Of a DNA stretch of 64,000 bases, positions 30,001 to 33,000 are shown piece by piece. The stretch spans positions 608,001-672,000 of the forward strand of contig CAVSBQ010000002.1 of assembly GCA_963726265.1 (NCBI GenBank), written 5' to 3'. This stretch comes from Candidatus Aenigmatarchaeota archaeon. GTDB lineage: Archaea > Aenigmatarchaeota > Aenigmatarchaeia > QMZP01 > QMZT01. A program made the position numbers. Each line of letters begins with the position of its first letter. The first letter of the stretch is position 1.

Positions 30001-33000
30001 GTCAGGCTTTATTACGGGTATGCCACCCACACCGTGAAATCAGTAACAATAGCCTCGCAGGACGAGCTGAGGTCAATACAGAACCAGGGCGGTGCGCTGC
30101 CGAGTGAAACCGTAAGCACGACCACGAGTCCAGTTCAACTCTCAGTGACAGTGAACGGCCCGATAAGATACCAGGAGGATGACAACAGCGTCACGTTCCC
30201 GATAAACATAGGCATACAAAACACCGGCGGCGGCACGGCCTGCGCCGGGAACGGCTGCATGGACACCAAAAACTGGAACAAGGTCAACATATTATTCGAC
30301 CGCGGGGACGATACTTCAATCGGGCTGAAATCATGCAGCATGGATTCTGAAGAGGAAGTGCCAATAGATTTATGGAAAGGCCAGTCAGCGACGCTCACGT
30401 GCGAGATTGAGATAAACGTCCAGGAAGCTGCAAGCCTTGTGCAGAAAAACCTGAAATTCAGCATATATTATGATTATTTCACCGATACCTCGACGAGCAT
30501 AGAAGTCTCAGGCAGATAAACCATCCAAATGCGGCATGTCCTAGAAATCGCCCAATGTCTTCTGCGGTTTTTTATCAAGTCTATGCCTTGCTGCGCTTCC
30601 CTTGCCTGAGTCAAGCTCGCCATAAACGCCGTCATAGCCTGGCTTTATCTTTATCCTGCCGTTCCTGACCATGATTATCATCTCTGCGATTTTTTCCTTC
30701 GTGATTTTTTTAAGCCCTTCTTCGCTCGCTTCCGCCAGCACGTTGAGCTCGGAGCCGAAGGCATTAACGAGCTTGCTGTATTCCTCCCACACCCTGGCCG
30801 AGGCCGCATGCGTTCCGCTGACAGCTGCTATTATTTCAGAGAGTGGAAGAAGGGAACGGAACGGCTTCGCCCCCATTGGCACGAAACCCGCAGGGCGTTC
30901 AGCATCAGCAAGTTCCTCGACCCTGTGCAGCACGCCTATCGTCAGCGGCTTCCTGCACACGGGGCAGATGTTGCGCAGCTTTATGCTCTCTCCCGGTTCC
31001 AGCGATACGTTGCAGTCGCGATGGCCGTCGTAATGGTATTTGCCATAGGATGGGTTAACCTCAAGCGTTTCAACCAGGCCATCCTTCGTCCTCAGCGCCT
31101 TGATCATGTTGTCGTATGTAAGCTCTTTCAGTTCGAAAACAGTAGCCTCTCTTCCTATGCGCCATGGCCAGAATGAATGAGAGTCTGAGAATGAAACCAG
31201 CGCGAATCTGTCGAGCTGCGAAAGCCTCCAGTTCATCGCGGGGTCGGATGACAATCCCGTTTCGAGTGCATGGATGTTTTTGGTCTGGTCTTTGAAACAG
31301 TCCTCGATGCGGTCGAAGCCCGATTTCGAGCCGAACAGCGAAAACCACGGGGTCCAGATGTGGGCTGGTATGATTTCATTTCTGGGGCTTATCTCCTTGA
31401 GCATTTCAACCAGTTCATGAGCCGGAATGCCGCATATGGGCCTGCCGTCCGATGCGATATTTACCTTCTTTCTCATTAGAGCTGAATTTATCTGCTCGGC
31501 AGTCTCAAGGTCTGGCGAAAGAATTATGTTGTGGATTCTCCTCAGTGCCTTGTCCTGCATGTAGATGCTGGATATCTCACCTGAGAGAATGAACGGGAAA
31601 CCTTCACGCGTTCTGAGGATGCCGCTTCCGTCTTCATGCAGTTCTCCCCTTATTTCATCCAGCCATGAAGGATGCGTGAAGTCGCCGGTTCCCAGGAGGC
31701 CTATGCCCTTCATTTTCGCGTATTTCACAAGATTATCTATGCTAAGCTCGCTGCTGGTTGCCCTTGAAAAGCGTGAATGAATGTGAAGGTCGGCTGCGAA
31801 TTTCATAGTGACCATGAAAATAAGTGTAAACAATCGTTAAAAATATGAATGGGCTCGCGGGGAGTCGAACCCCGGGCCTCCGGCTTTCCTAGTTAATAGG
31901 TCAAAGCATATCAGGCTAACGCCTGAAGGTCTTATAAGACCGGCGCTCTAACCAGCTGAGCTACGAGCCCACCCATCGAAAGACAGCCTGAATCATAAAC
32001 CCAAGTTGTCAATCGCTATTCACGAAGGACAGCTTCTTTAAGAATGCCAAGCCGTCGTTATATTCAACTATATTGAGATAGCCGTTTAAATTGCTTGCAT
32101 GCCCAATATAGCTGCAGAATGTTGAGAATAAAATTTATAAATAACCCATATATAATCTCTATATCTCTGGTTTCATTATAAACCGATATACGTAATGATT
32201 AAAGGAGAATAAAAAAGAGGTGATGATATGAATGGAGCACAGTCGGTTCAGCCGATTTTTATACTACCCGAAGGAACAATGAGGACGAAGGGCAGGGAGG
32301 CGCACAAGAACAACATCACAGCGGCAAAGCTCGTTGCGGATGCCGTGCGCACCACGCTTGGCCCCAAGGGAATGGACAAGATGCTTGTCGATTCGCTGGG
32401 AGACATTACGATAACGAATGACGGAGCGACTATCCTGAAGGAGATGCAGATAGAGCATCCAGCGGCGAAAATGATGGTCGAGGTCGCCAAGACGCAGGAC
32501 GAGGCGGTCGGCGACGGCACGACAACGGCGGTCATAATTGCGGGTGAGCTTCTTGCGGAGGCCGAAAAGCTTCTGGAGCAGCAGATACATCCGACGGTCG
32601 TCACCAAAGGCTTCAGGCTTGCAAAAATAAAAGCGCTGGAAGTGGTGGAAAAGCTGGCGAAGAAGGTCACGATAGAGAACGAGGATACGCTCAAGAAACT
32701 GGCGAACACCGCCATGACAGGCAAGTCTGCTGAAAGGGCGTCGGAAAGGCTTTCAGACCTTGCTGTCAAAGCTGTCAAAAGGATAGCAGAGGTCAAGGAA
32801 GGAAAAGTCTACATCGACACGGACAATATTAAAATAGAGAAGAAGCAGGGCGGCTCTATGGCAGACACGGAACTCATAGACGGCATAGTCCTGGACAAGG
32901 AGATTGTCCATTCGGCCATGCCGAAGAGGCTCGAAAAGGCCAAGATAGCGCTTCTGGATTCCGCGCTCGAAATCAAGGAGCTTGAAGGCGACGCCAAGAT

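Follow-up and report, generated by a model that had tools for sequence, protein, structure and literature searches.

AUA is unique among sense codons in that most bacteria and archaea depend for its reading on an essential modification, that of C34 to lysidine or agmatidine; in the usual archaeal route, a CAU tRNA is converted to the agmatidine form by TiaS. Lineages that dispense with C34 modification represent a second workable solution for this codon. The closest described examples are the ARMAN-2, ARMAN-4 and ARMAN-5 genomes, which encode tRNA-Ile(UAU) and lack both tRNA-Ile(CAU) and TiaS, with the pre-tRNA spliced in vitro and the ARMAN-2 precursor cut by its own three-unit endonuclease (Fujishima et al. 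2011, PMC3239211). Similarly, two further papers describe a tRNA-Ile3(UAU) and no tRNA-Ile2(CAU) for Nanoarchaeum equitans as well as Korarchaeum cryptofilum (PMC8450103, PMC6000648). Among bacteria, Mycoplasma mobile reads AUA without a C34-modifying enzyme through a tRNA-Ile2(UAU) whose U34 is unmodified; this is the sole such case in which the state of U34 was studied, together with adaptations of IleRS (Arg865) and of the ribosome (Taniguchi et al. 2013, PMC3575796). In eukaryotes, the cytoplasmic tRNA-Ile(UAU) carries pseudouridine at positions 34 and 36, introduced by Pus1 on the intron-containing precursor only (PMC11408192).

Our analysis concerned a 64,000-nt window of a Candidatus Aenigmatarchaeota archaeon genome (contig CAVSBQ010000002.1, positions 608,001 to 672,000). 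The window contains a gene that very probably encodes an AUA-reading tRNA-Ile(UAU), spliced from a bulge-helix-bulge (BHB) precursor and replacing the CAU/TiaS agmatidine route (Table 1). In its general arrangement, the genome resembles Candidatus Micrarchaeum acidiphilum ARMAN-2 and ARMAN-4/-5: it belongs to a DPANN lineage with a UAU tRNA, no CAU-type tRNA-Ile and no TiaS, and it combines a BHB intron at 37/38 with a single three-unit endonuclease (PMC3239211). It likewise shares with Nanoarchaeum and Korarchaeum the presence of a UAU tRNA in place of tRNA-Ile2(CAU) (PMC8450103, PMC6000648), and with Korarchaeum the intron in the UAU gene, the GAU partner there having none (PMC6000648).

Table 1. 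Features of the tRNA-Ile(UAU) locus, in window coordinates
Feature	Position	Strand	Description and basis
Pre-tRNA-Ile(UAU) gene, 121 nt	31850..31970	-	Rfam RF00005; mature tRNA 74 nt; CCA not encoded
Exon 1, tRNA positions 1-37 plus 20a	31933..31970	-	Acceptor 5' strand, D arm, 5' anticodon stem, loop C32-A37; read from sequence, junction from BHB and ARAGORN scan
Anticodon U34 A35 U36 (TAT in DNA)	31934..31936	-	Read from sequence
Intron, 47 nt, canonical 37/38, bulge-helix-bulge	31886..31932	-	BHB scan and sequence
Exon 2, positions 38-73	31850..31885	-	A38, 3' anticodon stem, 5-nt variable region, T arm, acceptor 3' strand, discriminator A73; read from sequence, with Rfam and spliced fold
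TATA-like box TTTATGA	31993..31999	-	Centre some 26 nt upstream from tRNA position 1; candidate promoter element; read from sequence
T5 run	31839..31843	-	7 nt downstream of A73; likely a transcription stop; read from sequence

This is a class-I tRNA gene: the Rfam tRNA model RF00005 scores it at 59.9 bits, above the gathering score of 29, and the alignment (E 1.9e-10 for the window) is untruncated, covering model positions 1-71 of 71. Once spliced, the sequence folds into a cloverleaf with a 7-nt anticodon loop, C32 U33 U34 A35 U36 A37 plus A38 (CUUAUAA), in which both U33 and A37 are present. The body is of the isoleucine type, with a 5-nt variable region, A73 and a D arm (TAGCTCAG...GAGC) common to tRNA-Ile(GAU), and the mature tRNA is 76% identical (57/75) to the genome's own tRNA-Ile(GAU) versus 67% (51/76) to the elongator tRNA-Met. 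A first-pass annotation of this DNA had described a tRNA-Ile gene with anticodon UAU, the loop CUUAUAA and a 47-nt canonical intron; the Rfam score and the BHB cuts at 37/38 bear this description out. The upstream TTTATGA was singled out by the spacing usual for archaeal TATA boxes and may serve as the promoter element.

The BHB scan identified an outer helix of 5 bp (positions 27-31 with 39-43, including U31-G39), a central helix of 4 bp in which positions 32-35 pair with intron positions -6 to -3, two 3-nt bulges and an inner helix of 1 bp (H=4, h=5, h'=1). The intron is thus a canonical archaeal BHB substrate, a type cut behind the second nucleotide of each bulge, in the relaxed hBHB form rather than the strict one because its inner helix has a single base pair. 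Splicing in a shifted register, or another identity with the anticodon UUA, UGA or UAA, is extremely unlikely. ARAGORN in intron mode (-i) names the gene Ser(tga), and a shifted BHB register with a 49-nt intron, a central helix of 4 bp and an outer helix of 4 bp gives a "tta" call; that register, however, would leave a 5-nt loop between canonical stems, whereas the canonical one has the longer outer helix and gives a loop of the normal 7 nt in which U33 and A37 are found. Serine and leucine tRNAs require a long variable arm, and the 5-nt variable region rules out the Ser and Leu readings to which other registers would lead. Also against a non-isoleucine identity, the D arm and acceptor are similar to those of tRNA-Ile(GAU), and the CTTATA loop is kept in every listed match to a strict sequence pattern for this tRNA, which was found in 95 of 371 genomes across the phylum.

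A single splicing endonuclease of the three-unit type (398 aa) is encoded in the genome and matches PDB 4fz2 chain A from end to end (E 2e-108), an entry that we take to be the broad-specificity ARMAN-2 splicing endonuclease. In Haloferax, the intron of pre-tRNA-Trp holds a box C/D guide for 2'-O-methylation. A guide of this kind acting on the anticodon loop was considered here and rejected, given that inspection by eye, with no formal search, found CTGA and no C box, and that the introns of relatives share nothing obvious and are in some cases only 15-25 nt long. The resemblance to ARMAN also has limits: the host belongs to the phylum Aenigmatarchaeota, and its endonuclease is only 45-51% identical to Micrarchaeota records. 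The ARMAN-2 intron is 25 nt long, compared with 47 nt here, and its BHB is described as strict, compared with an inner helix of 1 bp here (PMC3239211).

A crude set of 1027 ORFs contains 11569 ATA, 7249 ATC and 3961 ATT codons, and ATA, previously given as the commonest Ile codon with 53%, remains so with 51%. Third positions are otherwise GC-rich (GC3 of 0.67); with half of the Ile codons carried by the UAU tRNA against this background, the route is neither marginal nor of low fidelity. The meaning of the codon was evaluated in 206 tblastn HSPs against a relative of 24% GC. These alignments scored ATA as Ile, which favours Ile-like columns, so that the share of ATG is the informative figure. 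Opposite ATA codons (n=2585) we found ATY in 25.2%, ATG in 1.5%, Val in 13.9% and Leu in 13.8% of cases, the same profile as opposite ATC (n=1588; ATY 25.6%, ATG 1.6%, Val 12.7%, Leu 14.5%); ATG stands opposite 1.4% of ATT codons and 14.9% of ATG codons. Because ATA positions align as those of ATC and ATT do, the alignments indicate that ATA encodes Ile in this genome. A reassignment of AUA (some mitochondria, for instance, read it as Met), with the UAU tRNA charged with some other amino acid, has a vanishingly small probability: nothing but the high share of ATA among ATH codons (ATA/ATC/ATT) at this GC3 speaks for it, and both the ten-fold deficit of ATG relative to the genome's own ATG positions and the Ile-like tRNA body speak against it. 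An IleRS of 1016 aa is present (ileS model, 859 bits).

The classical archaeal system would require a CAU tRNA in addition to those for methionine. Four independent scans of the genome were carried out, namely a single-intron scan (1.57 million BHB candidates), a two-intron scan (14 ambiguous loci), a D-arm scan and an anticodon-arm scan; they covered genes other than split or permuted ones and those with three or more introns, and several multi-intron loci were ambiguous in anticodon. Together they recovered only two CAU tRNAs, at contig positions 167441-167571 and 419206-419304, and none detected a third CAU arm with a proper T arm, including one with an Ile-type body. One of the two is initiator-like, with A1-U72 and a GGG/CCC stem, and the other is elongator-Met-like (GCCGATG-TG-GCTC...), in line with the earlier assignment of the only CAU tRNAs to initiator and elongator Met.

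Six-frame searches of the genome at E<=10 returned no match to TiaS_FLD or to the catalytic domain TiaS_TCKD, with the four archaeal controls positive for each. For TiaS_FLD, the earlier result of 0 in 23 genomes of the family (22 relatives and the genome itself) was reproduced; the caveat attached to it, that one Pfam domain had been searched, is answered by the addition of TiaS_TCKD, and at the level of the phylum neither domain was matched in any of 371 genomes, 98 of them of high quality, with positive controls each time. TiaS_FLD also gave no match in any of 241 sampled genomes of a second, Micrarchaeia-linked phylum. Since the assembly (4 contigs) is 88.4% complete, absence from this one genome is not proof, and it is the phylum-wide zeros that carry the claim.

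Two related possibilities were rejected. An acquired bacterial TilS does not fit the three PP-loop proteins of the genome, of which two are GuaA C-terminal proteins and the third is NcsA/TtuA-like; the highest lysidine_TilS_N score, 37.8 bits, falls short of the 93.6 cut-off, and the protein concerned scores far better as NcsA/TtuA. Loss of TiaS through an inability to make agmatine is excluded by a pyruvoyl-dependent arginine decarboxylase (206 bits). It is also very unlikely, and close to refuted, that a classical TiaS with its tRNA-Ile2(CAU) escaped notice by being unassembled, too divergent or intron-fragmented, the UAU tRNA being then an extra. The incomplete assembly, the ambiguous multi-intron loci and the use of two Pfam domain models as the sole basis of the TiaS search leave some room for this alternative, but the zeros across the phylum and its high-quality genomes, the four scans that turned up no CAU arm other than those of the two Met tRNAs and the triple pattern shared by the published ARMAN genomes (PMC3239211) all argue against it. 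The earlier claim that this lineage reads AUA through a UAU tRNA therefore holds, on the evidence of a UAU anticodon after canonical splicing, the lack of a third CAU tRNA, of TiaS and of TilS, and the alignment of ATA as Ile.

To place this genome in context, we examined the distribution of the tRNA in the phylum. Its sequence pattern was detected in 95 of 371 genomes in strict form and in 155 in relaxed form, both lower bounds, while a reversed-pattern control appeared in 4 genomes. Four of five pattern-negative genomes of the family do carry tRNA-Ile(UAU), masked by an extra intron in the D loop. By comparison, Nanoarchaeum and Korarchaeum are single genomes from other phyla (PMC8450103, PMC6000648), and in Aenigmatarchaeota TiaS is absent from 371 genomes and the tRNA pattern present in at least 155. 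The TiaS-free UAU solution is the rule across the whole phylum and not a peculiarity of one genome, and it is probably fixed in the second phylum as well, to judge from the 241 genomes sampled. The first-pass annotation had presented it as the rare U34 solution of Nanoarchaeum and Korarchaeum; the use of that solution stands, and its rarity was overstated, as it had been published for ARMAN-2, ARMAN-4 and ARMAN-5 in 2011 (PMC3239211) and extends through the phylum. TiaS-free decoding by UAU is thus sound, not new, and ordinary for related tiny archaea. No new principle is added; what emerges is a TiaS-free solution fixed across a DPANN phylum, with 371 genomes devoid of the TiaS domains. A literature search, with subscription journals mostly outside its coverage, returned no paper joining Aenigmarchaeota with agmatidine, or DPANN with agmatidine, TiaS or agmatinylcytidine.

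Taken together, these observations suggest the following route. The precursor would be transcribed, probably from the TATA-like box, and cut by the endonuclease at both BHB bulges before ligation and CCA addition. The mature tRNA would then be charged by the genome's IleRS, and its U34 would pair with the A of AUA, leaving AUU and AUC to tRNA-Ile(GAU) and AUG to the initiator and elongator Met tRNAs. The state of U34 and the rejection of AUG pose the same biochemical question as in Nanoarchaeum, Korarchaeum and ARMAN. As in Mycoplasma mobile, rejection most likely depends on an unmodified or lightly modified U34 in an all-A/U codon-anticodon helix, with help from the ribosome. M. mobile is the best available model, being a prokaryote that reads AUA through UAU without a C34-modifying enzyme (PMC3575796); unlike the present lineage, it is bacterial, its tRNA lacks an intron and its IleRS is of the bacterial type.

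A different explanation, which we consider unlikely, is that AUG is avoided by modifying U34, and perhaps U36, while the intron is in place, and that the 37/38 intron is kept for this reason. Selection might then act on the intron through its helix with the anticodon, which would be needed for, or would guard against, a U34/U36 modification that stops the tRNA from reading AUG; we regard this as doubtful too. The eukaryotic tRNA offers a precedent, with the same anticodon and a 37/38 intron pairing with it (PMC11408192). Of 40 tRNA-Ile(UAU) genes from 40 Aenigmatarchaeota genomes, the present gene included, 39 carry the intron, as opposed to 3 of 21 tRNA-Ile(GAU) genes (after removal of 7 rows from a probably mixed bin, G273, and one spurious row), a difference that parallels Korarchaeum (PMC6000648). 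A TruD/Pus7 gene was found in a scan of this single, 88%-complete genome, but scans of the same assembly gave no match to PseudoU_synth_1 (TruA/Pus1) or to Radical_SAM_C, the Elp3 marker. The eukaryotic modification requires Pus1 (PMC11408192), so a eukaryote-type Pus1 route was set aside and a different enzyme would have to act. Further evidence against the idea includes an intron-less UAU gene within the phylum (G222, the sole one of the 40), the lack of anything obviously common to the introns, by eye, beyond BHB pairing, and the fact that related genomes are not independent samples. In a sample of 30 loci from the second phylum, moreover, the intron occurs in 13 of 17 UAU genes, 4 being without it, and in 7 of 13 GAU genes; with the contrast gone, we rate a functional role for the intron low. 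If it were true, then together with the absence of TiaS in two DPANN phyla it would make eukaryote-like AUA reading an ancient archaeal trait, shared lineage-wide, and not a set of scattered accidents.

Finally, the locus carries a warning for annotation. In default mode, ARAGORN calls a tRNA-Arg as the sole tRNA of the window and misses tRNA-Ile(UAU), and its intron mode sets introns without regard to the BHB, misnaming this and several other tRNA genes. Owing to these misplaced introns, we wrote a custom BHB scan with in-silico splicing and used it alongside ARAGORN. With the gene missed or misnamed in these modes, AUA looks unreadable in such genomes.

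The gene on the minus strand at 31850-31970 is matched by the Rfam tRNA model with a score of 59.9 bits, against a gathering score of 29 (E 1.9e-10 over the window). The alignment spans the model from position 1 to 71, interrupted by a 48-nt insertion 3' of the anticodon. The gene was not reported in the window by ARAGORN under default settings; in intron mode the program gave Ser(tga), which is excluded, like the Ser/Leu identities from other splice registers, by a variable region of 5 nt. Reading of the strand gave an acceptor of GGGCTCG and CGAGCCC with discriminator A, a D arm of GCTC-AGCTGGTTA-GAGC, an anticodon stem CCGGT followed by CTTATA, 47 nt and A-GCCGG, and a T arm of CGGGG-TTCGACT-CCCCG. 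CCA is not encoded, unlike at L005, L006, L007, L011 and L012, loci from other families whose tRNA-Ile(UAU) genes carry an encoded 3' CCA and a second, T-loop intron. Putative promoter and stop signals are a TTTATGA box, about 26 nt upstream of the gene, and a T5 stretch, 7 nt downstream. The neighbouring ORFs, one on either side, encode 430 aa (minus strand) and 546 aa (plus strand). The mature tRNA is identical to the genome's own tRNA-Ile(GAU) at 57 of 75 positions and to its elongator Met at 51 of 76.

The intron forms a predicted bulge-helix-bulge (BHB) motif, in which the 5-bp anticodon stem (including U31-G39) is the outer helix, positions 32-35 pair with intron -6 to -3 in a 4-bp central helix, the two 3-nt bulges comprise positions 36 and 37 with intron +1 and intron -2 and -1 with position 38, and the inner helix consists of one G-C pair. 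The predicted cuts at 37/38 would yield the loop CUUAUAA with anticodon UAU. A one-base shift of register (49-nt intron) can be drawn, but it leaves just five loop nucleotides between the canonical stems and was rejected. Strand reading, BHB fold and Rfam score confirm the tRNA-Ile with anticodon UAU, this loop and a 47-nt canonical intron described in the first-pass annotation.

Positions of the tRNA-Ile(UAU) gene and of other loci in the genome (C2, position on the contig that holds the window; otherwise position in the window)
Feature	Position	Strand	Remark
tRNA-Ile(UAU) exon 1	31970-31933	-	
tRNA-Ile(UAU) anticodon	31936-31934	-	
tRNA-Ile(UAU) intron	31932-31886	-	47 nt
tRNA-Ile(UAU) exon 2	31885-31850	-	
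tRNA-Ile(GAU)	C2:938207-938327		45-nt intron
CAT tRNA, elongator-Met-like	C2:167441-167571		56-nt intron at 37/38
CAT tRNA, initiator-like	C2:419206-419304	+	
GuaA C-terminal paralogue, 325 aa	C2:1075090-1076067	-	below curated cut-off
GuaA C-terminal paralogue, 316 aa	C2:808787-809737	+	above curated cut-off

Because most tRNA genes in this assembly (1.13 Mb in 4 contigs, 52% GC, completeness rating 88.4%) have introns, tRNA scans were run with in-silico intron removal. Each of 1.57 million relaxed single-intron BHB candidates from both strands was removed before running ARAGORN, and anticodon CAT emerged at two loci only: one is elongator-Met-like by its body (GCCGATG-TG-GCTC...) and loop (CTCATAA), the other initiator-like by A1-U72 and a GGG/CCC anticodon stem. 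No CAT solution appeared among 14 ambiguous tRNA loci in a two-intron search, no further CAT loop was found by a scan for tRNA-type D arms, and a scan for anticodon arms (CAT, TAT or GAT) with a T arm returned the same two CAT, one TAT and one GAT in convincing tRNA context. The four scans agree with the earlier statement that initiator and elongator Met are the only CAU tRNAs, an inventory that covers unsplit genes with up to two introns, some multi-intron loci being ambiguous in anticodon. The initiator-type tRNA has the loop CCCATAA, with C33 in place of the near-universal U33, and an intron of about 24 nt near positions 6-8, its splice register being approximate.

The reported lack of TiaS had been based on one domain, a weakness named at the time, and it holds with a second. 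Neither TiaS_FLD (PF08489) nor the catalytic TiaS_TCKD (PF22641) had a six-frame match in the genome even at E<=10, and each was found in 0 of 371 genomes of the Aenigmatarchaeota, including 0 of 98 high-quality genomes; four archaeal genomes serving as positive controls matched every time. TiaS_FLD was likewise found in 0 of 241 sampled genomes of a second phylum, reached through a Micrarchaeia-titled record. Within the group TiaS + ALTERNATIVES, the genome has three PP-loop ATPases, one NcsA/TtuA-like and two GMP-synthase subunits, and an IleRS gene; TilS, the bacterial lysidine counterpart, was rejected, its model scoring 37.8 bits where the cut-off is 93.6. The genome encodes an arginine decarboxylase, so agmatine shortage does not account for TiaS loss. 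The GMP-synthase subunits are two paralogues of the GuaA C-terminal ATP-pyrophosphatase.

Of the 22779 Ile codons in a set of 1027 long ORFs, 11569 (51%) are ATA, within gene-calling error of the 53% noted previously, with ATC at 32% and ATT at 17%. GC3 is 0.67, and in four-fold boxes the codons ending in A are little used (CTA 4%, GTA 11%, ACA 14%, GGA 17%); the ATA preference is 2-3 times that predicted from third-position composition. AGG makes up 39% of Arg codons. High ATA/AGG preference is a pattern described for thermophiles, and it also appears in this DPANN genome. The meaning of ATA was assessed by binning the facing codons in 206 HSPs between these proteins and 400 kb from a 24%-GC relative that belongs to another family. 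The ATA profile equals that of ATC, and the ATG profile is unlike both; by this comparison ATA reads as an ordinary Ile codon. Overall, AUA reading without TiaS is supported.

Codons of the relative facing ATA, ATC and ATG
Own codon	n	ATY	ATG	Val	Leu
ATA	2585	25.2%	1.5%	13.9%	13.8%
ATC	1588	25.6%	1.6%	12.7%	14.5%
ATG	1745	10.4%	14.9%	6.0%	20.6%

Across the phylum, a strict pattern (Ile-type D arm then CTTATA) matched at least 95 of 371 genomes, its reversed form none, and a relaxed pattern at least 155 of 371 (47 of the 98 high-quality genomes), with control matches in 4 genomes. Five genomes of the family to which the window belongs were negative by pattern. Four of them do have tRNA-Ile(UAU), missed because an additional D-loop intron breaks the pattern; the loci examined did not settle the fifth. 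In sister genera of the same family, L134 (G339:C9), L135 (G338:C76), L143 (G340:C1) and L132 (G353:C1) hold tRNA-Ile(UAU) genes with two or three introns, in the D loop, at 37/38 and, in three of the four, the T loop, an arrangement that a simple pattern search misses. For the red alga Cyanidioschyzon merolae, a tRNA-Ile(UAU) with three introns has also been reported (PMC9602550). Within the second phylum, a hand count of the listing, leaving out G402, gave the UAU pattern in 47 of 60 sampled genomes; the automatic tallies include G402.

The U34 solution is less rare than the first-pass annotation held: it is common in this phylum, and Fujishima et al. 2011 (PMC3239211) report tRNA-Ile(UAU) in ARMAN-2, -4 and -5, with tRNA-Ile(CAU) and TiaS homologues absent, as well as in vitro cleavage of pre-tRNA-Ile(UAU), with a 25-nt intron at 37/38, by the three-unit ARMAN-2 endonuclease. 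Nanoarchaeum equitans and Korarchaeum cryptofilum are named as the archaea with this tRNA in PMC6000648 and PMC8450103. Given these published cases, Aenigmatarchaeota extends a known solution to a new lineage; in the searchable literature, no paper was found that ties agmatidine or TiaS to Aenigmarchaeota or 'DPANN'. The finding is useful mainly as phylum-scale documentation of TiaS-free AUA reading, and intron-rich DPANN genomes call for caution in tRNA annotation.

As for how U34 might avoid AUG, our guess would be an M. mobile-like model, preferred because of one precedent and because U-G wobble is weak in an all-A/U helix. In that precedent, the tRNA-Ile2(UAU) of the bacterium Mycoplasma mobile, U34 is unmodified (Taniguchi et al. 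2013, PMC3575796). Single scans of this incomplete genome found genes for TruD/Pus7 and for an NcsA/TtuA-like thiolase, and found neither a TruA/Pus1-family gene nor the Elp3 marker domain.

The 37/38 intron occurs in 39 of 40 tRNA-Ile(UAU) genes from 40 Aenigmatarchaeota genomes (12 loci, the window gene, G148, 4 family members, 2 more and 20 others) but in only 3 of 21 tRNA-Ile(GAU) genes, counts that overstate independence because the genomes are related. The sole intron-less UAU case is G222, whose batch had the intron in 19 of 20. For the GAU count, seven rows of G273 and one spurious row were dropped, and one intron-less row was judged by eye; G273 (1.9 Mb, same phylum) was left out because its seven different GAU-pattern matches on seven contigs suggest a mixed bin. 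This contrast is reminiscent of eukaryotic tRNA-Ile(UAU), in which pseudouridylation depends on the intron (PMC11408192). Among 30 second-phylum loci, the intron is present in 13 of 17 UAU versus 7 of 13 GAU genes; with four UAU genes intron-less, it is clearly not indispensable, and a functional role is a long-shot lead.

The single splicing endonuclease (398 aa) matches PDB 4fz2 chain A, which we take to be the ARMAN-2 three-unit enzyme, end to end (E 2e-108). Among its closest relatives in public records, at 60-83% identity, almost every title reads Candidatus Aenigmatarchaeota or 'uncultured archaeon'; the exceptions are a single Micrarchaeota (65%) and a pair of Nanoarchaeota (60% and 65%). 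Almost all remaining records under a Micrarchaeota or Micrarchaeia title, or that of one of their orders, are 45-51% identical. On these identities the phylum is read as Aenigmatarchaeota (DPANN). A full-length archaeal three-unit endonuclease, 49% identical, is also encoded on L097 (MFMA01000035.1), titled Candidatus Kaiserbacteria bacterium; this contig is probably archaeal and was placed in a bacterial bin.
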